Shown: positions 51,375 to 63,431, counted from the first letter of the stretch. The stretch is 64,000 nt of DNA from Thermodesulfovibrionia bacterium (GCA_947259735.1 CAMYNN010000001.1:40409-104408), one strand, 5' to 3'. The notes: a model not told the origin generated them from the letters alone. Numbers and translations are program-made.

Positions 51375-52661
51375 ATGATGAGTTCATTATTTACAGGGGT
51401 CAGCGGCATGTACGCACATGGTACAGCCCTGTCAGTTATTGGAGACAATGTGGCCAATATGAACACCGTTGGATTCAAATCCAGCAGGGCGGCGTTCGGG
51501 GACATTCTCAGTCAGCAGGTCGGTCATTCCCAGGTGGGACGGGGAGTACAGCTTACTGATGTTTCACCCATATTTACGCAGGGTGCATTTGAGAATACAT
51601 CGAATGTATTTGACATGGCCGTTGACGGTGACGGTTTATTTATGATCAATGACGGGGGAGGTGCCTTCTACACGAGACAGGGGCAGTTTAACGTGGACAA
51701 GAACGGTGATGTGGTGAATCCCAGCGGGCATCAACTGCAGGGCTACCTCTATAACACGACCGGTACACAGACAAACGTAATAGGTGATATCAATGTTGCG
51801 GCCATTAACAGTCCACCAAACCCGACTTTGAATGTGTCCTTGACATCCAATCTTGATTCACGGGAGACCATCCCTGCAGCATTTGATGTAAACAATCCTG
51901 ACTCTACATCAAATTACTCAAGTTCCCTGACAGTATATGATTCACTGGGGAATGGACATGTAATTGAGCTTTACTTCAGAAAGTCAGCAGTTGCTGCTAC
52001 AGGGAACACATGGGAATGGTTTTCGGTGGTGAACGGGAATGACTCAGCGAGTGCAGCCACGGAGATACAGGCCCAGGGTACGCTCGGATTTGACAACAGC
52101 GGACGTCTGGACACGGAAAGTGCGGTTGCCTATCCCCTTGCTTCGGGCGGCTTTGATTTTAATGGTCTTGCAGCTCCGGGACAGGCGATTGACTTTGACT
52201 TTGGTACTTCAATAACAACAGACGGCGGCTCAGGACTGGACGGAGCGACACAGTATGGTAACGACTCAAGCACTGCGTTCCAGGACCAGGACGGATATTC
52301 TTCAGGATCCATGATGGAGATTACAATTGGTCCCGATGGAATTATTACCGGCATATTTACCAATGGACAGACGAGAGGCATTGCACAGGTTGCAATTGCG
52401 AAGTTTATATCGCCCACGGGCCTCACAAAAGTAGGGAAGGGTCTTTACGCTGAGTCAGTTGAGTCCGGACAGGCCCTGATCGGTACACCGGGAACATCGG
52501 GTACAGGACAGGTAATAGCAAACTCGCTGGAGATGAGCAATGTTGATCTCGCAGAGGAGTTTGTTAAAATGATTATGGCTCAGAGAGGATTCCAGGCAAA
52601 TTCCAGAGTAATATCAACATCAGATGAACTTCTGGTAGAACTCGTGAATCTGAAGAGATAG
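51375..52661 (+). CDS. flgE: Flagellar hook protein FlgE.
   Basis: N-terminal SGM...NVANMNTVGFK and the C-terminal ANSLEMSNVDL...EF rod/hook motifs. Confidence 0.9.
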   Translation: MMSSLFTGVSGMYAHGTALSVIGDNVANMNTVGFKSSRAAFGDILSQQVGHSQVGRGVQLTDVSPIFTQGAFENTSNVFDMAVDGDGLFMINDGGGAFYTRQGQFNVDKNGDVVNPSGHQLQGYLYNTTGTQTNVIGDINVAAINSPPNPTLNVSLTSNLDSRETIPAAFDVNNPDSTSNYSSSLTVYDSLGNGHVIELYFRKSAVAATGNTWEWFSVVNGNDSASAATEIQAQGTLGFDNSGRLDTESAVAYPLASGGFDFNGLAAPGQAIDFDFGTSITTDGGSGLDGATQYGNDSSTAFQDQDGYSSGSMMEITIGPDGIITGIFTNGQTRGIAQVAIAKFISPTGLTKVGKGLYAESVESGQALIGTPGTSGTGQVIANSLEMSNVDLAEEFVKMIMAQRGFQANSRVISTSDELLVELVNLKR

Positions 52662-52697
52662 CATCGGCTGACATGAGAGCGCGAACCAGTGCATAAG

Positions 52698-52735
52698 AAA
52701 AAAAGGTGCAGGAATAAATCCTGCACCTTTTTTTA
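52698..52735. terminator. Bidirectional rho-independent terminator: GGTGCAGGA-ataaa-TCCTGCACC flanked by an A-run and a T-run.
   Basis: 9-bp perfect stem, 5-nt loop, T8 downstream and A7 upstream. Confidence 0.75.
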
Positions 52736-53071
52736 TGGAGGTTCATCAAAATAAAAAATGCTCTGAACACTAAAATCATTTACAATAAGTGTACACTTTT
52801 TCTCGATATTACAATTTCAAGCATCAAAATACAATAAATTACAAATATAAAATCTAAAAAAACAGCTATGATTATTTTGGGAGTTTGAGGCTTTGGTTGC
52901 TGTGAATTTATATTAATTTGTAATGTGAGACTTGGTACTTGGAATTTTTTAAAGTAAAACGGCAGTAGGCAATAGATGCGTTTGCATCTGCTGTAAAATA
53001 AATCCTGACTATTGCTCATCAAAGAAGGGAACATACCGTGCCTTTCCCTCCTGAAAAAAATGCTTCTGTCT

Positions 53072-53383
53072 CTATCTGCTAACAGCCTGATAGACCTGGC
53101 CCGGTTTAAGCAGGACAAACTGCTCTGAGCCTTCTTCAGATTTTATTTGCTTGAATACTTCGCAGGACATGCATGACACTGACTTTTGGGCGAAATCACC
53201 CTGAACCATCCCGTCACAGAACGTGCCGGCTATTGACCAGCATATGCGCCCACCGTTTTTTCCGCTGTTCACGCCATTACTTGATACATTTGTTGATGCA
53301 GGACAGATTCCCAGGCTTCCGACATTCACTCCGCCCTGTTCCCTGCCGCATTTTTTGATCTCCCAGCAGTTTCGCTTATTCAT
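53072..53383 (-). CDS. Small Cys-rich protein (8 Cys) with a repeated CW motif (NCWEIKKCG...ICWSIAGTFC). Possibly a 'two-CW' sensory domain protein.
   Basis: GGGGGGAAG RBS. The CWxI...C module occurs twice. Own 177-bp upstream region. The family name is recalled from memory and was not checked. Confidence 0.5.
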   Translation of the reverse strand: MNKRNCWEIKKCGREQGGVNVGSLGICPASTNVSSNGVNSGKNGGRICWSIAGTFCDGMVQGDFAQKSVSCMSCEVFKQIKSEEGSEQFVLLKPGQVYQAVSR

Positions 53384-53560
53384 ACATCGCTTCCCCCCAT
53401 TCTTATCGGATCGTGATTATTCATAGCCATTCACATCAGCGTGTCTGTTTTCTCTTAAGAAAGTTATCGGCATTTATGAATAAACCTTTAGAGAAGAGCA
53501 GGAAATATCTCAGTGATGATGATAAAGTGACAGGGGGAAAGGTGAAGGGAGAATAAGAGG

Positions 53561-54601
53561 CTAGACTGAATTTATAATATACCCCGCAATTTCATCGATG
53601 GGAAGAATCTGGTCGGCAGCACCTGATTCCACAACTGACTTGGGCATTCCGTAAACGACACAGGTCTGCTCGCTCTCCGCGATTGTCCTTCCCCCCTTGT
53701 TCTTGATTTCCTTCATACCCTTGGAGCCGTCGTTCCCGAGGCCCGTAAGAATTACGCCGAGCACATGGCCGGAGAAACTTTCAACCGCTGAAAGCATGAG
53801 GACATCAACGGAGGGTCTGTAGATATATTCCCCTCTTTCCTCAGAAATACGTAGCACTGATTCTGTTATTTTTTTTCGTTCTATGCTCATATGACCTCTG
53901 CCGGGCGCGATATATATTGTGCCTTTTTTCACCAGGTCCCCCTCTTCGGCTTCTTTTACTTTAAGAGCGCTCAGTTGATTGAGCCTTTCAGCAAAGGGAC
54001 CGGTAAATGCAGGCGGCATATGCTGGGCAATGATAATTGGAACAGGAAAGTCTTCCGGTAAGCAGGTTAATATTTTTTGCAATGCCCTGGGACCGCCTGT
54101 TGAGGAACCTATAGCGACGACATTGATTTTCCTCTGCGCTATATAATTTGTCTTTTCGGGCATTTTCAGAGGTCCCGAAAGTTTATTGTTGAAGCCCTGG
54201 GACAGACCTTTGCTGCCGATATTCTTTATTTTTTCAATGAGTATTTCTTTAATTTTAACTATATTGATAGAAAGGTCTGATAAATTTTTGGGGATATAGT
54301 CTACGGCCCCTATGTCAAGGGCATCCAGTGTTAAATTGGCCCCTTCAGTAGTCAATGAACTGACCATCAGCACAGGCAGGGGATTCTTGTCCATTATCTG
54401 CTTCAGTGCCTCGATACCGTCCATCCGGGGCATCTCAACATCAAGTGTAACTAAATCAGGCTTCAGTGAAACAACTTTTTCCACAGCCTCAATTCCGTCA
54501 CGCGCAAAACCGACCACCTCAATTTCAGGATCGGAAACGATCATGCTTGAGAGAGTGTTCCTCATAAAAGCGGAGTCATCGACTATTAAAACCCTAATCA
54601 T
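53561..54601 (-). CDS. cheB: Chemotaxis methylesterase CheB (REC plus methylesterase domain).
   Basis: REC N-domain. Catalytic Ser/His/Asp methylesterase region. Confidence 0.9.
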   Translation of the reverse strand: MIRVLIVDDSAFMRNTLSSMIVSDPEIEVVGFARDGIEAVEKVVSLKPDLVTLDVEMPRMDGIEALKQIMDKNPLPVLMVSSLTTEGANLTLDALDIGAVDYIPKNLSDLSINIVKIKEILIEKIKNIGSKGLSQGFNNKLSGPLKMPEKTNYIAQRKINVVAIGSSTGGPRALQKILTCLPEDFPVPIIIAQHMPPAFTGPFAERLNQLSALKVKEAEEGDLVKKGTIYIAPGRGHMSIERKKITESVLRISEERGEYIYRPSVDVLMLSAVESFSGHVLGVILTGLGNDGSKGMKEIKNKGGRTIAESEQTCVVYGMPKSVVESGAADQILPIDEIAGYIINSV

Positions 54602-54639
54602 GAAAATTCCTCATTCTATTCATTTAGCGTTGTTTTTGG

Positions 54640-55107
54640 CTACGGTAATTGAACTGCTTCTCCCATCAGTTTATTGATGTCAATGATAATAATAAGCCTG
54701 TCATCAAGATTGGCAAGGCCTTCAATAAACTTGCTGCTCATGTCTGATGACATTGGCGGAGCAGCTTCTATCCTGCTTGCAGGAACTCTCAGCACTTCTG
54801 ACACGGAATCGACAACGAGACCATTTGTAATTCCTTCCAGTTCCATTATTATGATTCTTGATGTATCATCTGCGGGTTTGTCGTCAAAGGCAAATTTTTT
54901 TCTGAGATTTATTACTGGAATTACCTTGCCCCTCAGATTGATGACACCCTCAATGTAATCTGCCGAATTCGGAACCTTTGTGATCTCCGTTATCCTGTTT
55001 ATTTCCTGAACGTTCAGAATATCAACTGCGTACTCTTCATTGTTCAGAGTGAACGTTACAAACTGAAGGACTTCCTCCACTACTGATGTGTCGACTGATG
55101 CGTCCAT
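54640..55107 (-). CDS. cheW: CheW coupling protein.
   Basis: Single CheW domain of 155 aa. Confidence 0.85.
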   Translation of the reverse strand: MDASVDTSVVEEVLQFVTFTLNNEEYAVDILNVQEINRITEITKVPNSADYIEGVINLRGKVIPVINLRKKFAFDDKPADDTSRIIIMELEGITNGLVVDSVSEVLRVPASRIEAAPPMSSDMSSKFIEGLANLDDRLIIIIDINKLMGEAVQLP

Positions 55108-55181
55108 GGGTTTGCCTCCTGTTTATTTAATAAATTTATACTCTTCATATCTACTGGCAGCATTACCATCAATAATAAATA

Positions 55182-56423
55182 TTAAAAACCGAAATCATTG
55201 AGCATGGCCTCTACATCTGACTGGCTCACTTTTTCTTCCTCTTCAGCGTTATCTCTCTCAGTTAATTCCTCAGGTGATGATTCAGATTTCCCGGCTGCTT
55301 CGATTGCCTCTGTTTTTACGGACATCCCAAACTTGCTGACAAGGCTCAAAAGTTCAGATTCAACATTATTCACAAGGTTGATGACTTTTTTTATCGTCTG
55401 CCCGGTTATGTCCTGAAACTGTTGCGCTGTGAGTATGGAAGTCATATCATCATCGAGAGCGGACTTAAAGGATTCAAGGTAGCTGACTCTGTCATTGTCA
55501 TTCCCTATTTCTCTGACCTGCCTGGCAAATTCATCAGATTCCTCAAAATATCTCTCAACTATGCCCATTGTCCTGTTCGCGGCGTCTTCTGTCTTTGACA
55601 TGACAAACTGGAGTTTGTCAACGGCACTCGGGACGTCGTCCTTTGTTAACCGTTGAATACCGTTATCGAGCGATCCTTTGAACTCTTCGAGTGAAGTATG
55701 CAATTTTCTTGTGATATTTCCGACTTCCCTGAAAAGCCCGCCCTCTGTTTCCCTGCCGAGCTGCTCAACAATTACTTCAACCTGTTCGTATTCCTGTGCT
55801 TCGAGAGCATTGATGAAATTAATCATCAGATCACCGACGTTATGCTTTGGATTCTCCCTGTCGAGTTTACCGCGGAAGTATTCCTTTGCATTATGCAGCT
55901 CCGTTACCCTTACTTTTCCTGCGATGGAATCCACTTCCTTTGTAACTTCAACATTTACCCCATCTGACGATTCCTCTACATTAATTATGTTCTCTTCTAA
56001 AAGACTCATATCCTCAAGAGGCAGAAGATTTCTTGTATTCAGCAGAACAATCAGCTTATTGTCCAGTTTTGCTACACCTTCGACAGCGTCTGCATTGTTT
56101 TTGAAAAAACTATCGGGAGGCTCGATATCTGATTCATCAGCATTAACGACCCCGGTAATTTCATCAACGATGATTCCAAAGGTAATTTTCCCTGTTGCGA
56201 GGACGATGACGATATTTCCATTACATTCATTGCACTCTGAATCAAGGAGATTCTTAAGATTTACAATCGGGATGATATTCCCTCTCAGGTTTGATATTCC
56301 CCGAACATATCCTGGCATGTGCGGAAGGGCAGTTACGGACGGCATTCCGATTATTTCGCGAACCTTTAATATGGGAATCATATATTCGCTGGAATTTACG
56401 CTGAACCCTATATACTGATTCAA
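55182..56423 (-). CDS. Fusion of an N-terminal CheW domain to a C-terminal CheZ phosphatase. TTG start.
   Basis: N-terminal CheW-like domain. C-terminal TAQQFQDITGQTIKKV matches the E. coli CheZ catalytic AQDFQDLTGQVIKR. The final MLNDFGF matches the CheZ CheY-binding tail LLDSLGF. An AGGAGG RBS precedes the TTG. Confidence 0.75.
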   Translation of the reverse strand: MNQYIGFSVNSSEYMIPILKVREIIGMPSVTALPHMPGYVRGISNLRGNIIPIVNLKNLLDSECNECNGNIVIVLATGKITFGIIVDEITGVVNADESDIEPPDSFFKNNADAVEGVAKLDNKLIVLLNTRNLLPLEDMSLLEENIINVEESSDGVNVEVTKEVDSIAGKVRVTELHNAKEYFRGKLDRENPKHNVGDLMINFINALEAQEYEQVEVIVEQLGRETEGGLFREVGNITRKLHTSLEEFKGSLDNGIQRLTKDDVPSAVDKLQFVMSKTEDAANRTMGIVERYFEESDEFARQVREIGNDNDRVSYLESFKSALDDDMTSILTAQQFQDITGQTIKKVINLVNNVESELLSLVSKFGMSVKTEAIEAAGKSESSPEELTERDNAEEEEKVSQSDVEAMLNDFGF

Positions 56424-56515
56424 TGAGTCCTCCTGTTCGGCATAGGTAGTATCATTATTTTTTCATTCTTCAGCTGATTGTTCACTTCTCTCTGTATCAT
56501 GCCTGTCTTTCCGTA

Positions 56516-58393
56516 TCAATTTGCTGCTGCACCAAGGAGATTTCTTGACATACCTGTTACATCAAGAATGAATACCACTTTACCGTCACCTGTAATGGTC
56601 GCACCAAGAACATGTGATGATGATGTGTCAACACCGTCCAGTGTTTTTATGACAACCTCCTCCTGTCCGAGGAGTTTATCAACAGCCACACAGAACCTCT
56701 TTTCACCGAGGGCAACGACGACAAGGTATTTATGATCAGGATTTGTATCGCTGCTTTCATTCATTCCATTTCCGAGTATGCTGCCTAATTCGTAAAGTGG
56801 ACATACTTTGCCGCGGATAACAACTACGCTCTGCCCTGTGACATTATCTATTTCTTCATTTGATAATCTGAGAGTTTCTTCTATTGGGGAGAGTGGTATC
56901 GCATATTTTGCTCCTTTCACCTCTACCATGAGTGCCTGCATAATTGCGAGTGTTAAAGGAATGCAAATTTTGAATGTAGTTCCCTCATCCTTTTTTGTTG
57001 CTATTTCGACAAAACCATTCAGGAGGGATATATTTGTCTTAACAACATCCATGCCGACACCACGGCCGCTTAACTCCGTGGCTTCCTTTTTAGTGGAAAA
57101 TCCGGGCATGAAAATTATTTCGGCAGCTGCCTCGTCACTCATTTTATTGGCTTCCTCTTCAGTGAGAATGCCTTTCTTAAGAGCGGTCTTTTTCAACATT
57201 TCCACATCCAGCCCTTTGCCGTCATCAGAAATTTCAATGATGATCTGGTTGCCCTGCTGGAATATATTAATAACGACTTTTCCTTTTGGTGGCTTGCCTT
57301 TGGCAATGCGCTCCTCGGTGGACTCCAGCCCATGGTCAATGGAGTTTCTTAAAATGTGTGTCATGGGATCACCGATATGTTCAATAACAGATTTGTCAAC
57401 TTCTGTGTTTTCTCCGACGATGAGGAGTTCCACGTCTTTGTTGACCGATGCAGACATGTCCCTGATCAGCCTCGGGAATTTACCGAGGACTTTCTTTATG
57501 GGCTGCATTCTTATTTTCATTACAGCAAGTTGCATATCGGAGGTTACCCTGTCCAGAAATGAAACAGTTTCCGTCAGTGTTTCCACCTGAGGGTCCTGGG
57601 AATACTTCTGATCAAAATATCGTGATATGTTCAAAAGTCTGTTTCTTACCAGAACAACCTCCCCTGCTAGATCCATAACCTTGTCGATGCGGTCAACGTC
57701 TACCCGCAGGTTCTGGGCAGTATCCTTCCCCTTGTGACCCGGTGTCTGCTGGACCTTTCCTTTCGTCTGCTCAATGGCAGGACCGCTGTCAATACTTTTT
57801 TCATCGATCATATTTCTGATTGTTACGTCTTCCGCTAATTCAGGGACTGATTGTTCCGTTTCAGAACTTTGAGGCACTTCATTTATCTCCTGCTCTGTAT
57901 GGGACGATTTCTCTGCTTCGGGTTCTTCCAGTTTCACCTCCTGGGTACCGGTAGTCTCCTTTCCTTCCGGATTAGTATTGCTTTGAGTATCATGAGAAAT
58001 TTCGGATGCGTCATTTAATGTTGATTCCAGTTCATGAACGAGTGGTGAAACGTCCTCTTCAATACCGTCTTTTGACTTCAAATGTCCGAGGAGAAGGCGA
58101 AGCATATCAATGGATTTAAGAATAACGTCCATAAGCTTTTTTGATAGGGAGATGTCGCCGTCTCTAAGCTTCTTCATTATATTTTCAGATGTGTGCGCAA
58201 CATCCACAAGACGCTGAAAACCCAGAAACCCTGCCGCACCTTTGATCGTATGCATTGAACGAAATATATCATTCAGAAGGTCGACGTCTTCCCCTTTTTG
58301 CTCCAGTTCCACAAACAGAGGCTCGATCCTGTCAAGTGACTCTTCGGCTTCTGTAATAAACTCCGATATTATTTCATCCATTTCATCATTCAT
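56516..58393 (-). CDS. cheA: Chemotaxis histidine kinase CheA (P1/Hpt, linker, P3, P4, P5). No obvious P2 domain.
   Basis: Hpt motif HTIKGAAGFLG. HATPase G-boxes. C-terminal CheW-like domain. Confidence 0.9.
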   Translation of the reverse strand: MNDEMDEIISEFITEAEESLDRIEPLFVELEQKGEDVDLLNDIFRSMHTIKGAAGFLGFQRLVDVAHTSENIMKKLRDGDISLSKKLMDVILKSIDMLRLLLGHLKSKDGIEEDVSPLVHELESTLNDASEISHDTQSNTNPEGKETTGTQEVKLEEPEAEKSSHTEQEINEVPQSSETEQSVPELAEDVTIRNMIDEKSIDSGPAIEQTKGKVQQTPGHKGKDTAQNLRVDVDRIDKVMDLAGEVVLVRNRLLNISRYFDQKYSQDPQVETLTETVSFLDRVTSDMQLAVMKIRMQPIKKVLGKFPRLIRDMSASVNKDVELLIVGENTEVDKSVIEHIGDPMTHILRNSIDHGLESTEERIAKGKPPKGKVVINIFQQGNQIIIEISDDGKGLDVEMLKKTALKKGILTEEEANKMSDEAAAEIIFMPGFSTKKEATELSGRGVGMDVVKTNISLLNGFVEIATKKDEGTTFKICIPLTLAIMQALMVEVKGAKYAIPLSPIEETLRLSNEEIDNVTGQSVVVIRGKVCPLYELGSILGNGMNESSDTNPDHKYLVVVALGEKRFCVAVDKLLGQEEVVIKTLDGVDTSSSHVLGATITGDGKVVFILDVTGMSRNLLGAAAN

Positions 58394-58425
58394 TCGTGGT
58401 CCTCCATACCGGTCAACGGTAAGAA

Positions 58426-58821
58426 TTAACTCTGTGCCTGCAGTCTTTCATATATTTTTTCCATTTTTTCTTTTAACACTTCTGCTGTAAATGGTTTTAC
58501 GATGTAGTTGTTGACGCCAGCCTGTATCGCTGCGATAACTTTTTCTTTCTCTGCTTCTGCGGTGACCATGAGAATTGGAGTGTCTTTCAATTCAATGTTG
58601 CCCCGTACCGCTTTTACAAGTTCAAGCCCATCCATGTTGGGCATGTTCCAGTCGCTGACAACGAACCCAAAGCCTCCTCCCTGAAGTTTTGAAAACGCCT
58701 GAGCACCGTCTTCTGCTTCTTCTATGCTTTCAAATCCAATTTGTCTGAGTAGATTTTTTACGATTCTTCTCATAGTTGAAAAATCGTCAACCACAAGCAC
58801 TTTTGCCTTAAGATCAATCAT
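58426..58821 (-). CDS. cheY: CheY, very close to enterobacterial CheY.
   Basis: [15 protein letters not shown]...[12 protein letters not shown]...PILMVTAEA...[11 protein letters not shown]. Confidence 0.9.
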
Positions 58822-59206
58822 GTTGTATACCTCCTTTGGCGAACATTTCTTGAATAATGTTTTTTATGTTTTGTGCAATTACATCTCCCGTAACAGGTTT
58901 TATCAGATAACCGTTCGCTCCATAACGAAGAGCCTTTTCCCGCTCTTCATCATCGCTCTCTGTGGTTACCATGAGGATCGGGAGTTCTTTCAGATCGGAG
59001 TTCGATCGAACTGCTTTAATCAGTTCAAGGCCGTCCATATAGGGCATGTTCAGATCTGCCATAATGAGATTGACCGGATCGGTGCCGAGTTTTTCAAGGG
59101 CGTCAAGACCGTTCTCAGCGAACACTACCGAATATCCTCGTGTCTTTAAATAGTGTCCAAGCAGTTTTCTTGTTGTCTGACAATCATCGACAATCATGAT
59201 TTTCAT
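58814..59206 (-). CDS. Second CheY-like single-domain response regulator.
   Basis: REC domain. Overlaps the downstream cheY by 8 nt. Confidence 0.85.
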
Positions 59207-59271
59207 GGTGTTACCTCAAATATATTAAATAATGTAATCTCTCTCTCTAATTTCATTTCACATTACCGCGT

Positions 59272-60096
59272 TTACACCTTTTGATAGAAAATGACTTTAT
59301 TTATAACAGTCGGTCTGAATGCCTTCGTTACATTGTGGAGACTCTCAGAGGTGCCGATTATAAGGTAGCCCTCCGGATTTAATCGATCATAAAGGTTGGA
59401 AACTGCTGCCTGCTTCGCCTTTGCATCAAAGTAAATGAGCACGTTTCTGCAAAAAATAACATCCATTCTTTGTATTGAATTAAGATAGTTTCCGTTAAAC
59501 AGGTTCCCATTGATGAATTTGACAGATTCTCTTATGTCTGAATTCAGAGCAAAGGATTGTCCGCCTCCGGTAAAATGTTTTTTCATGTAATGCTCCGGAA
59601 TGTTTCTCACAGAGTAGGAGTTGAATACAGCATTCTTTGCAGAGTCCAAAACTCCCGTGCTCAAATCAGAAGCATGGATTTCATAATCTGACGATCCCCT
59701 TCGGTTTTTCAGAAGCATCATGGAAATTGTGTAAGGTTCTTCGCCAGTAGAACAAGCCGCTGACCATATTTTTACCGGTTTAGAGCCCTTCTTCTCTTTC
59801 AGTAATTCGGGAAACAGTTCATCGGTAAAGACGCTTAACTGGTGGGGTTCTCTGAAAAAATAGGTTTCATTTGTGGTAATCGCATCAAAGAGTCTTGTCA
59901 ATTGATTGCCGTTTGAACTGATCTTTATAAGTCTTAGATAGTCGTCAAAACTGTCAAGCTTGTTTTCCTGCAATATTCTTGTCAACCGGTTTGTAATGAG
60001 ATATTTTTTTGAATCCGAAATATAGATACCGCTATTGTCGTATATAATGGCTCTCAGCTCTTTGAATGTGGAATCAGAGAGAGACATCATCGGCAT
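59272..60096 (-). CDS. cheR: Chemotaxis methyltransferase CheR.
   Basis: CheR N-helical domain plus a SAM-dependent methyltransferase domain. Confidence 0.85.
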   Translation of the reverse strand: MPMMSLSDSTFKELRAIIYDNSGIYISDSKKYLITNRLTRILQENKLDSFDDYLRLIKISSNGNQLTRLFDAITTNETYFFREPHQLSVFTDELFPELLKEKKGSKPVKIWSAACSTGEEPYTISMMLLKNRRGSSDYEIHASDLSTGVLDSAKNAVFNSYSVRNIPEHYMKKHFTGGGQSFALNSDIRESVKFINGNLFNGNYLNSIQRMDVIFCRNVLIYFDAKAKQAAVSNLYDRLNPEGYLIIGTSESLHNVTKAFRPTVINKVIFYQKV

Positions 60097-61514
60097 GCAA
60101 CTCCGGAGTTGAAATCCTGTGCAAGCCTTTCAGCGACTTCCTTGAGGTCATCATTTAATTCGTCCATGGAAGAGATGAAGCGTTTTAAATCAATACGCAT
60201 AAGCGCATGTATGCATTCGTAGATGACATCGTCATATGGCTCGTTCTGAATCATGCTCATAAGTGGATCAAATGCTGTTTTCTCACAGATCTTTCCGAGT
60301 GCCGTTGCAGCAGTTTTTCTGACATGACTGTCGGAGTCATCAATCGCTTCGATGAAACAATCTTTTTCCTGCCCGTCGGATGTTTGAGACAGTGAAGTGA
60401 TGCTTGCCCGTCTTATGTCTCTGAAATCATGATTTGTCAGAAAGATGAGATCGGGCACGGCATCTTTGCACCCTAATTCACCGACTATCTCAATAGCTAT
60501 TGTTTTCCCTCTGTATCTAAGAGAATCGTTCCGCAGTAAAGATATGAGTGCTCCACTGCATCCGAAACTGTAAATGGCCTCTTTGATGAAACTCAGTTTC
60601 TCTTCATTTTCAGGATAAGAGAGATCGAAGGAACCTGCCGCATCCACCAGATGATACAGTGCCTGCTCATCTCTTAATGAAACCAGTCCTCTTACAGCCG
60701 ATGTTATATCGTTCCAGTCGCCTTCTTTCATCATGCCAATCAGAAAGTCTGTGATCCCCGGAATCGGAGGAACGGATCCCATCATACATAAACTCTTTAT
60801 TGTTGCAGTCTTTTCAATTCCTTTGGCTGTTCTCAAATGATCGGTAAGACTTTGAACAGCTTCAGGAGTGTTAAATGTACAGAGTGTGTCAATTGCTGCA
60901 AACCTGACTGGATCAGAAGAGCTTTTTATGAGATGTGCAATTGAATCTGTGACACTGACCTCTTTCATGTCCACAAGTGCTTCCAGTGCTGAGAAACAGA
61001 CCCACTCCTCATCGCTTAAAGCATGCACCAGCTGGGGGACTGCCTTTTTGTACTTTAATCTCCCGAGGGTTCTGGCAGCTGACGCCCTCACATTTGCGTT
61101 TTCATCACTGGTGAGCATTTCAACAATTTTTTCCGGATAAGTGCAGTACTGAATGTCATAGATGAGGTCAACGGCGAATTTTCTTATATCATGGTCCTTA
61201 TCTCTCAGAAGGACGTACAAAAGAGGCACGGCAACCCGCTCCATTTCTTTCAGAATTATGATCGCTGTATTTCTCAGAAATGCCTCCTCTCTCAATAGGG
61301 GGAGGAGCATATATACCGTTGATTCCTTTTTTAATTTCATAAGAGAACGCATAGCTGCATCCTGAACACCGAGGTTTTCATCCCTCAGTGCCTTGATCAG
61401 CGGATAAAGCACCCTGTCGTCACCGTCGGAAAGCGCCTCGGCTGCGGCACGCCTCTTTGAGGAATCAGCATCGTTCAGATTCCTGAGGTACTTGTTGAGC
61501 GTTGTCGAATGCAT
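60087..61514 (-). CDS. HEAT-repeat protein (PBS-lyase HEAT-like repeats).
   Basis: Repeated ...VRxxAxxALG... helical repeats across 475 aa. Overlaps the cheR start by 10 nt. Confidence 0.65.
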   Translation of the reverse strand: MHSTTLNKYLRNLNDADSSKRRAAAEALSDGDDRVLYPLIKALRDENLGVQDAAMRSLMKLKKESTVYMLLPLLREEAFLRNTAIIILKEMERVAVPLLYVLLRDKDHDIRKFAVDLIYDIQYCTYPEKIVEMLTSDENANVRASAARTLGRLKYKKAVPQLVHALSDEEWVCFSALEALVDMKEVSVTDSIAHLIKSSSDPVRFAAIDTLCTFNTPEAVQSLTDHLRTAKGIEKTATIKSLCMMGSVPPIPGITDFLIGMMKEGDWNDITSAVRGLVSLRDEQALYHLVDAAGSFDLSYPENEEKLSFIKEAIYSFGCSGALISLLRNDSLRYRGKTIAIEIVGELGCKDAVPDLIFLTNHDFRDIRRASITSLSQTSDGQEKDCFIEAIDDSDSHVRKTAATALGKICEKTAFDPLMSMIQNEPYDDVIYECIHALMRIDLKRFISSMDELNDDLKEVAERLAQDFNSGVACR

Positions 61515-61838
61515 TGTTATCCTTACTGTGGTACAGAATCTCCACTGATGGATGATCCAATTACCTATGCGAAGCAGACCATGTATTTATTTGAATGTAT
61601 TACCGTTCATCTATGTTTAAATTATCGGAATAAAAGGGGGATATCTTTAGCATCAAAGCATTGTTCTCAATGTTTGAATGTCAGAGAGAAAGGACGGTGG
61701 GTGAATTATATGATTAGCTTGCTTAGCGAGCTTCATGGAGGACGTTGTGAGCCCAGCAACGGTAAGGCAGCGGGGTATGTCACATGGTGCAGCAGGGAAG
61801 AATAAACAGAATACCTGCAGGGAAGCACTGCACCCTGT

Positions 61839-63143
61839 TTACCCTGTCTCATTTAAGGCCGTCATATCGCCGGGTACATCATTTTCTGTCATTACCATGT
61901 TTCTCCCCGACCGCTTGGCGAAGTAAAGAGCTGTATCAGCTCTTTCAAATACCCGCGTAGAGTCATCGCCTTCCCTGAATGTGCTGATACCGACGCTTAC
62001 CGTGAGGGGTATGTCCTTCCCTTTATAGGAAAAGATGGCTTCATCTATATATTCCCTTATGCCTTCTCCAGCCTTCTCGGCACCGGTGAGATCCGTATGG
62101 GGAAGAATAGCCACAAATTCTTCCCCCCCGTATCGTGCTACATAATCATTTGTCCGCAAGCGTTTTTTCAGCAGAGAAGCTATTTTAACAAGGGCAAGGT
62201 CCCCAACTTTGTGGCCGAAGGTGTCGTTAATGTTCTTGAAAAAATCTATGTCGCAGATCAACAGAGATGCCTGCACATTATACCTGTCGAGATTGGCCAG
62301 TGTTTCTGTTATTCTTTGATCATAGGCTTTCCGGTTAAAGAGGCCGGTGAGATTGTCACGGAATGATTCATACTGCATTTCCCGTGCTTTTCTACGCATC
62401 TCTTCAGCTTCAGCTCTAATGGCTTCTATCTGAACATTCATGTATTTCAATGAATCCTCTGTCTCTTTAAGGCGCACTATGTCCTGATCTCTCCTCTTTT
62501 TGATGCATTTGTTGATATTGCCGATCTTGCTTAACACGGCATTTTTGATGCTGTCGATGCTCCCCTCGGTGTCAAAATCCTTTTTAATGGAAGAGATGTC
62601 AGAATAGATAAATTCATCGGCCTGCCTGTCACTGCTGTATTTTTTCTGCTGGGTATATACTTCTTTTGACAACTGCCGTTCCGTTTCACCAAGATACTGC
62701 ATAGTCTGAACGATGAAGTTTTCCATTTCATTGTTGCGTACCGAAATAGAATCAATATATTTCTTTATTATCTGGATTGGTGAATCGAGCCAGTCTGTAG
62801 ACTTGCCGGCAAGTACTTTATCATCCAGCTTTCCTTTCAGATCATCGAGGTTGTCAATCATGGAGCTTGGCACCAGTTCAGAAAACCTGTCCAGTATCTT
62901 TGTTGATAATTCCCTCAGATATTGAGGGGTTATATCACTCTGTGGCGTTATTGATGTGGTGCCTGAAAGAAGTTTCTTTACAGGATCACTCCAGAACATT
63001 TTATCGGCTATGAGTTTGCTGTCAATCTGTTTTCTGTTATCATGTGAAAGCTCTTTCAGTATTTTAAGGACTTCATCGGCAAAAACAGATATTTTTTCCT
63101 CGTAATGAAGGTTCTGATCGAAAAGTTCAGCTGATTGATTCAC
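61839..63143 (-). CDS. GGDEF diguanylate cyclase with an uncharacterised ~270-aa helical N-terminal domain. GTG start.
   Basis: RxxD I-site and GGEEF. An AGGAGG RBS precedes the GTG at 63143. Confidence 0.8.
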   Translation of the reverse strand: MNQSAELFDQNLHYEEKISVFADEVLKILKELSHDNRKQIDSKLIADKMFWSDPVKKLLSGTTSITPQSDITPQYLRELSTKILDRFSELVPSSMIDNLDDLKGKLDDKVLAGKSTDWLDSPIQIIKKYIDSISVRNNEMENFIVQTMQYLGETERQLSKEVYTQQKKYSSDRQADEFIYSDISSIKKDFDTEGSIDSIKNAVLSKIGNINKCIKKRRDQDIVRLKETEDSLKYMNVQIEAIRAEAEEMRRKAREMQYESFRDNLTGLFNRKAYDQRITETLANLDRYNVQASLLICDIDFFKNINDTFGHKVGDLALVKIASLLKKRLRTNDYVARYGGEEFVAILPHTDLTGAEKAGEGIREYIDEAIFSYKGKDIPLTVSVGISTFREGDDSTRVFERADTALYFAKRSGRNMVMTENDVPGDMTALNETG

Positions 63144-63204: not shown

Positions 63205-63431
63205 ATCACACTTCAAATATAGGGGATAGCCCCATAATATTGTATCGGACTTTATTTTTAAAACTTGAATGCTATAAGAATATTATTTTTGAGATATTAG
63301 AAAACTACCCATATTTAAATGATAAAATAAGATATCAAAGACGGGATGGAGAGTGAAATCCTCGCAGGCACTCGTTAAACGATTGATGAGGAATTCAAGT
63401 GGATATCACAAATTGAAGGAGGACGATACTC

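Follow-up and report, generated by a model that had tools for sequence, protein, structure and literature searches.

A stand-alone two-CW domain gene with a conserved sigma-28-type promoter motif between cheB and flgE in Thermodesulfovibrionia

We analysed a 64-kb stretch of DNA from a Thermodesulfovibrionia bacterium, which is referred to here in its full length as the window. It carries a chemotaxis (che) operon, followed on the same strand by a small gene for a cysteine-rich protein of the two-CW family. The gene flgE converges on this small gene from the other side. The features of the che and two-CW genes are as follows.

53561-61514, minus strand: che operon encoding, in this order, HEAT, CheR, CheY, CheY, CheA, a CheW-CheZ fusion, CheW and CheB (Pfam scan)
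53561-54601, minus strand: cheB, with the two-CW gene downstream of it after a 177-nt spacer
53384-53560, minus strand: intergenic spacer between cheB and the two-CW gene, 177 nt, containing a promoter motif
53390-53398, minus strand: G-rich Shine-Dalgarno-like element GGGGGGAAG, 6 nt before the ATG, read from the sequence
53072-53383, minus strand: two-CW coding sequence, stand-alone, 103 aa, ATG start, seven conserved Cys, two CW motifs

A GGDEF gene lies upstream of the che operon (61839-63143; Pfam scan). Among the window ORFs of 150 aa or more, none encodes an MCP signalling domain, and the operon is without an MCP gene, in agreement with a preliminary description of this DNA in which the operon was said to lack a receptor. 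The first gene of the operon encodes a HEAT-repeat protein of 475 aa (60087-61514, minus strand) and overlaps the start of cheR; a HEAT gene stands at the operon head in all relatives with enough upstream sequence. The CheW-CheZ protein (55182-56423, minus strand; 413 aa) has a CheW domain at its N-terminus and a CheZ phosphatase domain at its C-terminus. This fusion is kept in relatives, with two separate genes in L006.

The preliminary description had placed a gene for a free-standing 103-aa protein at 53072-53383, behind a strong ribosome-binding site and a 177-bp upstream region of its own. The observation was confirmed: the ORF reads from an ATG on the minus strand, the upstream region runs from 53384 to the end of cheB at 53561, and the G-rich run at the Shine-Dalgarno place is kept in relatives, as GGGGG or AGGAG. 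The translated protein is MNKRNCWEIKKCGREQGGVNVGSLGICPASTNVSSNGVNSGKNGGRICWSIAGTFCDGMVQGDFAQKSVSCMSCEVFKQIKSEEGSEQFVLLKPGQVYQAVSR. It contains seven Cys (positions 6, 12, 27, 48, 56, 71 and 74), one fewer than the eight that had been counted, and both of the motifs that had been quoted, N-CWEIKKCG...GICP and R-ICWSIAGTFC. The Cys spacing is C6-W-x4-C12-x14-C27(P) in the first half and C48-W-x6-C56-x14-C71-x2-C74 in the second. We found 585 close homologues, 65-79% identical and nearly all exactly 103 aa long, mostly from Nitrospirota/Thermodesulfovibrionia MAGs. In comparison with 12 orthologues, the gene showed 0.15-0.21 non-synonymous differences per site and 0.74-0.91 (saturated) synonymous ones. 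Since pN is far below pS, the gene appears to be under strong purifying selection.

The similarity to a two-CW Cys-rich domain, which had been suggested earlier, was borne out by HMM searches. The NCBIfam model NF045718 ("two_CW_domain") matched the window protein with E=4.4e-30 and 103.9 bits, about three times the curated cutoff of 35, and aligned residues 5-82 with profile positions 2-79 of 80. The family-defining features are all present, namely C6-W7 and C48-W49 plus C12, C27, C56, C71 and C74. Across 101 diverse members, conservation is complete or reaches at least 90% at all seven Cys, both Trp and several Gly, Asn and Arg positions, and it is likewise 90% or more in the Gly-rich loops; no His was found among the conserved columns of these 101 sequences. 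Pfam has no model for the two-CW domain and gave no family for the window protein even at E up to 10, leaving NCBIfam as the source of the assignment. The Fer4-family, CZB, FlgM and HNOB models of Pfam did not match the window protein, which places it outside the ferredoxin-type, CZB and FlgM families. NCBI already labels the close homologues P0032 and P0086, and also P0273, as two-CW domain-containing. Judged by these matches, the window protein is a genuine stand-alone member of the two-CW family, whose domain spans about 80 residues, and nothing about it differs at the family level.

The family itself is already known, as a catalogued but unstudied signalling domain family. In the literature searched we found no published description of the two-CW domain or of NF045718, and nothing relevant to it among work on Cys-rich or Fe-S chemoreceptor domains. 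We took a census of the family by an exhaustive HMMER search of 1.84 billion representative proteins (E up to 1e-3), which gave 1338 representative clusters at 50% identity from bacteria and archaea. Of the best 150 family representatives, 90 do not exceed 150 aa. The domain therefore normally occurs free, as the only one in its protein, and most commonly in stand-alone proteins of about 100 aa. Thus the gene is separately encoded, as had been pointed out in the preliminary description, but this is usual rather than noteworthy. Tandem double two-CW proteins of about 185-265 aa also occur (P0121-P0123, P0272, P0273), one of which, from a Thorarchaeota MAG, carries the NCBI name 'two-CW domain-containing protein'.

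The CW/Cys motif had been described as duplicated. In a profile-profile comparison of the two halves (hhalign), C12-x14-C27 aligned with C56-x14-C71, with P=0.04 and a probability of 1.3%. These values do not demonstrate homology of the halves, and the internal duplication therefore seems to hold at the level of the motif but without significant support for common descent.

The domain had also been described as an N-terminal module of chemoreceptors, kinases and GGDEF proteins. We examined 46 long representatives of the family, whose partner domains were HATPase_c (11), PAS_9 (9), REC (7), HisKA (7), Pkinase (5), cNMP_binding (5), PilZ (5), GAF (3), GGDEF (2), PP2C (2) and STAS (2), with HDOD and Hpt also among them. 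Kinases, GGDEF proteins and chemoreceptors are indeed partners, and the domain is N-terminal in proteins of the types 2CW-PAS-GAF-HK, 2CW-HK-REC and 2CW-cNMP-Pkinase-PP2C. However, it also stands at the C-terminus (GGDEF-2CW, REC-...-2CW and a large hybrid kinase ending in Hpt-2CW), and always does so in the chemoreceptor fusions found. The latter, in which an MCP signalling domain is followed by a C-terminal two-CW domain, comprise four protein clusters (P0275, P0148, P0271 and P0276), all from short contigs, and are rare (one of the 46 long representatives).

Desulfobacterales have a conserved tandem pair in which a gene for a 2CW-cNMP_binding-Ser/Thr kinase (~540 aa) is followed by one for a 2CW-PP2C phosphatase (~335 aa). 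The pair was found in L074, L080, L082 and L083, and L059 has a truncated second gene. It amounts to an opposing kinase and phosphatase with the same input domain. Large two-CW fusion proteins were seen in the Desulfobacterales loci L059, L060, L066, L074, L080, L082 and L083, and P0124 is a single-chain fusion of the 2CW-cNMP-kinase and 2CW-PP2C halves. Fusion to kinases, phosphatases, cyclases, receiver proteins and chemoreceptors marks the two-CW domain as what is probably a signal-input or regulatory module. No fused two-CW protein was found in the Thermodesulfovibrionia loci retrieved, where all copies are stand-alone.

We compared the gene order around the two-CW gene in complete and draft Thermodesulfovibrionia genomes. 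The order is HEAT, cheR, cheY, cheY, cheA, cheW/cheZ, cheW, cheB, two-CW, convergent flgE, flgD, fliK. The succession of cheB, two-CW and convergent flgE was present in about 20 GTDB species genomes as well as in metagenome contigs, and in every close relative examined within Thermodesulfovibrionia the two-CW gene is fixed between cheB and the convergent flgE. The spacer between cheB and the two-CW gene measures 85-266 nt in relatives.

The preliminary description had named the absence of the gene from related genomes with the same operon as a result that would count against it. A metagenome scan anchored on CheB, and hence unbiased for the presence of the two-CW gene, gave an answer in two parts. 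With CheB at least 67% identical and at least 390 nt of downstream sequence, the two-CW gene was present in all contigs (4/4), in line with its presence in all close relatives. In contrast, it was found in none of the contigs with CheB 44-66% identical, many of which keep the cheR-cheY-cheY-cheA-cheW/Z-cheB order nonetheless. We conclude from this distribution that the two-CW gene is a lineage-specific, stably kept addition and not a core part of this chemosensory class.

Some variation was seen within the lineage. One subclade of relatives (L011, L020, L025, L026 and L030) has an MCP gene inserted between cheA and cheW-cheZ, which the window operon does not have. The inserted MCPs are 400-540 aa long; that of L025 (5523-6902) has 459 aa and an MCPsignal domain only, with no recognised sensor domain. 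An identical 103-aa two-CW protein (P0082) occurs in three assemblies (L004, L005 and L006) with differing neighbourhoods on both sides, and in L005 only a CheZ fragment and unrelated genes lie upstream of it. These differing contexts suggest assembly or binning chimeras or a recent rearrangement.

The spacer behind cheB contains a candidate promoter. Together with related motifs and a terminator, it defines the following features.

53464-53490, minus strand: sigma-28 (FliA)-type promoter TAAAGGTT-n11-GCCGATAA, 107 nt upstream of the two-CW ATG
61622-61649, minus strand: another sigma-28-type motif, TAAAGATATCCCCCTTTTATTCCGATAA, some 108 nt before the HEAT gene
63242-63268, minus strand: third sigma-28-like motif, about 100 nt upstream of the GGDEF gene
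52692-52737, both strands: bidirectional intrinsic terminator hairpin between flgE and the two-CW unit

The promoter sequence at 53464-53490 (TAAAGGTTTATTCATAAATGCCGATAA) matches 15 of the 16 positions of the sigma-28 consensus, TAAAGTTT-n11-GCCGATAA (PMC2859248), with the correct n11 spacing. It is the only exact match to TAAA-N15-GCCGATAA in the 64-kb window; with one mismatch there are three matches, compared with 0.36 expected by chance. We scored upstream regions of orthologues against both consensus halves at a spacing of 10-13 nt, using random 200-nt segments from the loci as background. Scores of at least 13 and at least 14 were reached by 1.1% and 0.3% of the background segments, respectively. 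Among the distinct che-linked orthologous upstream regions, 21 of 22 scored at least 13, always 59-120 nt before the start codon. Apart from the two-CW motif, the only sigma-28 matches in intergenic regions on the operon strand of the window are those before the HEAT and GGDEF genes. The motif before the HEAT gene recurs in L011, L020, L025, L027, L030 and L034, and relatives share the arrangement of one sigma-28-type motif before the che operon and one before the two-CW gene.

These motifs suggest three consecutive sigma-28 units, consisting of GGDEF, HEAT/che and two-CW. Because a conserved sigma-28-type motif lies in the spacer, we read the two-CW gene as a unit of its own and not as the last gene of the operon, and its earlier placement at the distal end of the che operon was given up. 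We infer that it is a separate late-flagellar-class gene and not the distal cistron of the che operon. Through its sigma-28-type motif, it would be co-expressed with the chemotaxis genes. A search with an E. coli FliA sequence found no FliA-like ORF in the 64-kb window.

The hairpin at 52692-52737 is likely to form the 3' end of the two-CW transcript, about 340 nt past the stop codon, and is common to flgE and the two-CW unit. Its sequence (GGUGCAGGA...UCCUGCACC) is perfect and flanked by A7 and U7, and the predicted fold has -24 kcal/mol on either strand (z = -6.3 and -5.9). The hairpin was not flagged by a consensus terminator scan, and an Rfam search of 52600-53620 gave sub-threshold matches only, on this same hairpin. 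Folding revealed no significant hairpin directly after the two-CW stop codon.

The stretch between the two-CW stop codon and the terminator (52738-53071, minus strand) is AT-rich and, at about 340 nt, unusually long; the distance from the two-CW gene to flgE is only 60-200 nt in most relatives. The source annotation gives an 84-aa ORF at 52780-53034 with a hydrophobic stretch near its C-terminus. This ORF is not conserved in L009, whose ORF at that place is repeat-derived, and we consider it doubtful. A long 3'UTR, what is left of an insertion, and a small orphan gene are all conceivable explanations of the stretch.

Two-CW genes also occur elsewhere in the same genomes. In a genome scan, single MAGs contained two to four two-CW genes, with products of about 103 aa that share 60-76% identity with the query. 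A neighbour-joining tree set the che-linked group apart from two further paralogue groups. Paralogues of the first of these (group i) follow a T2SS-like operon (gspC-D-E-F: T2SSC, secretin, T2SSE with an MshEN domain, and T2SSF) and carry their own sigma-28-like motif, TAAAGTTCC...GCCGTT, at -104 to -115 in conserved placement. Examples are L086 (QZIL01000083.1, 215-6312), L013, L015, L016 and L024. Those of the second (group ii) lie between PocR and DUF116 genes, mostly without a sigma-28 motif. Other paralogues follow a PAS-kinase/NarL-type pair.

When the consensus sequences of the three groups from Thermodesulfovibrionia were compared, almost no differences appeared across the 103 positions. 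The paralogous copies therefore look biochemically equivalent and probably differ mainly in regulation, no chemotaxis-specific interaction surface is visible, and a paralogue-specific surface could not be proposed. The occurrence of paralogues in unrelated contexts weakens a chemotaxis-specific reading. With two to four near-identical copies per genome in non-chemotaxis contexts, the earlier idea that the protein feeds specifically into the che pathway is thus plausible but no stronger than that.

Among more distant stand-alone members, some have signalling genes as neighbours. One lies 28 nt upstream of an MCP gene (L043), another 201 nt downstream of one (L037), and a third (L047) is 28 nt upstream of a gene for a hybrid histidine kinase without a recognised sensor domain. 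Other stand-alone members adjoin housekeeping genes, such as those for ribonucleotide reductase, gyrA, metG and the CCA-adding enzyme.

An AlphaFold2 model of the window protein, made with the family alignment, was confident (pLDDT 85.6, pTM 0.76) and is made up of short helices, one small hairpin and, at the C-terminus, a long helix. The family profile had no match among PDB sequences, and Foldseek with the model against the PDB returned noise only (best E=3.8). The predicted fold thus appears to have no solved structural relative at the sensitivity tested. A metal or redox role of the protein is something that we infer from the conserved Cys. For its putative cofactor, an Fe-S centre is more likely than zinc, to judge from the Cys spacing, the single CxxC pair, a ferredoxin-like C-P, the lack of a conserved His and the host range, as the lineages of the top genome matches are taken by us to be mostly anaerobic.

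Several known systems resemble the two-CW protein in part. One is the CZB domain, a cytoplasmic metal domain that depends on Cys and reports the redox or oxidant state; it occurs C-terminally in the chemoreceptor TlpD of H. pylori and also in DgcZ, a diguanylate cyclase of E. coli (PMC6715182, PMC8262984). The two-CW domain is likewise found at MCP C-termini and in GGDEF proteins, which would correspond to an analogous logic. Unlike the CZB domain, a four-helix bundle with a 3His/1Cys zinc site, it has seven Cys, no conserved His and a different predicted fold, is mostly stand-alone and shows no sequence relationship. H-NOX is a small cofactor-bearing sensor domain that is fused to chemoreceptors in some anaerobes and is elsewhere a free protein, encoded beside kinases or cyclases, which it controls in trans. 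The stand-alone two-CW genes situated 28 nt from the gene of an MCP or of a sensor-less hybrid kinase in some genomes may be comparable. The two proteins are not homologous, however, and the putative two-CW cofactor would be Cys-ligated, whereas that of H-NOX is heme.

WhiB-like (Wbl) proteins are small stand-alone Fe-S sensors of about 100 aa with idiosyncratic Cys spacing and several paralogues per genome. They have four Cys, bind sigma-A and are not known to be fused to signalling enzymes. Two-CW proteins seem similar to them in size (~100 aa), Cys content, stand-alone form and number of paralogues, but have seven Cys, are also fused to signalling enzymes and show no detectable similarity in sequence or fold. 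FlgM is disordered and is not known to have the two-CW Cys pattern, whereas the two-CW protein is Cys-rich and predicted to be folded. In functional terms, we regard the CZB domain of TlpD/DgcZ and stand-alone H-NOX as the probable closest analogues of the two-CW protein, which is a member of neither family.

Our best explanation, to which we give somewhat less than an even chance, is that the protein is a cytoplasmic metal or Fe-S sensor module that is co-expressed with the chemotaxis genes and acts in trans on the array or on another motility signalling protein. The gene would be transcribed as its own unit from the sigma-28 (late flagellar) type promoter, alongside the chemotaxis machinery. 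A metal centre, for which we favour an Fe-S cluster over zinc, would be ligated by the Cys of the protein, and the state of this centre would change the protein's conformation or oligomerisation. Acting in trans, the free protein would thereby influence the chemosensory array or a further protein of motility signalling, and so perform as a separate polypeptide the task that the C-terminal domain may have in the fused chemoreceptors. The conserved position, the sigma-28-type motifs, the signalling partners of the fused forms, the MCP::two-CW fusions and the adjacency to MCP or kinase genes in L043, L037 and L047 argue for this explanation. The paralogues in unrelated places, the housekeeping neighbours, the absence of a che-specific surface, the che operons with CheB 44-66% identical but without the gene, the rarity of the MCP fusions and the absence of a FliA-like ORF from the window argue against it.

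Alternatively, the protein may be a generic small cytoplasmic metal or redox protein (an electron, cluster or metal carrier, or a stress protein) with no specific tie to chemotaxis. We consider this less likely. In that case its place behind cheB would reflect frozen synteny, with the paralogues serving as copies for dosage or regulation that are expressed from different promoters. The presence of two to four nearly identical paralogues per genome in unrelated contexts would be expected on these terms, and so would the many stand-alone members beside housekeeping genes and the lack of the gene in more distant versions of the che operon. A gap of 85-500 nt also always lies between the gene and its upstream neighbour, as is usual for independent units. 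A generic carrier does not, however, account well for a domain fused almost only to signal-transduction domains and not to metabolic or redox enzymes, or for the MCP fusions and tight MCP or kinase adjacency. Moreover, the sigma-28-type promoter links the gene to the motility regulon in its expression, and a sigma-28-like motif is present at the T2SS-linked paralogues as well.

Another reading, which we hold to be improbable, makes the protein a trans regulator of non-array signalling proteins or of transcription. The protein might, for instance, associate with two-CW domains that are part of fused kinases or cyclases, but no fused two-CW proteins were found in the Thermodesulfovibrionia loci retrieved. 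It could also be a late-class regulator of the flagellar cascade or motor in the manner of FlgM or YcgR. The small size of the protein, the late flagellar-type promoter, the adjoining hook genes and the fusion of two-CW domains to PilZ and REC domains are consistent with such a role, as is the GGDEF gene with its own sigma-28-like motif at the head of the locus. Near-identical paralogues would be expected if they shared a target. Against this stands the lack of similarity to FlgM or any other Pfam family. An anti-sigma factor (FlgM or ZAS-like) was ranked low among the candidates, given that signalling enzymes carry the domain as a fusion and that no such family matched.

A more far-reaching form of the sensor explanation is one that we would not expect to prove right. 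In it, small Fe-S or metal redox sensors with an unseen fold would form a new class, represented by the two-CW proteins, and the sigma-28-controlled free copy would be a detachable sensor that docks on the array or on input-less receptors, giving redox or metal taxis in anaerobes. The paralogues would plug the same signal into T2SS-like and NarL-type systems. Finally, the ORF in the cheB-flgE spacer could be fortuitous or a gene-calling error, but its small size and the missing Pfam match are all that could be cited for this. Such a reading is refuted by the curated HMM (E=4e-30), the 585 homologues of nearly always 103 aa, pN<<pS and the confident AlphaFold2 fold prediction, and we give it practically no credence.

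Compared with NF045718 members, the window protein has all the family features. What is added here is its conserved placement between cheB and flgE, its own sigma-28-type promoter, the expansion to two to four paralogues and the C-terminal position of the domain in chemoreceptor fusions. The locus will not surprise a specialist; it is a clean, testable handle on a widespread signalling domain that has remained unstudied. The two-CW domain is wired into kinases, phosphatases, cyclases and chemoreceptors across bacteria and archaea whose habitats we take to be mostly anoxic, yet it has no published function in the literature searched. The free 103-aa form beside the chemotaxis genes offers an entry point to the domain in this lineage. 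Should the protein contain a redox-active centre and communicate with the array, it would represent a new kind of cytoplasmic chemotaxis input. If not, it would still be a compact model for what the two-CW domain senses.
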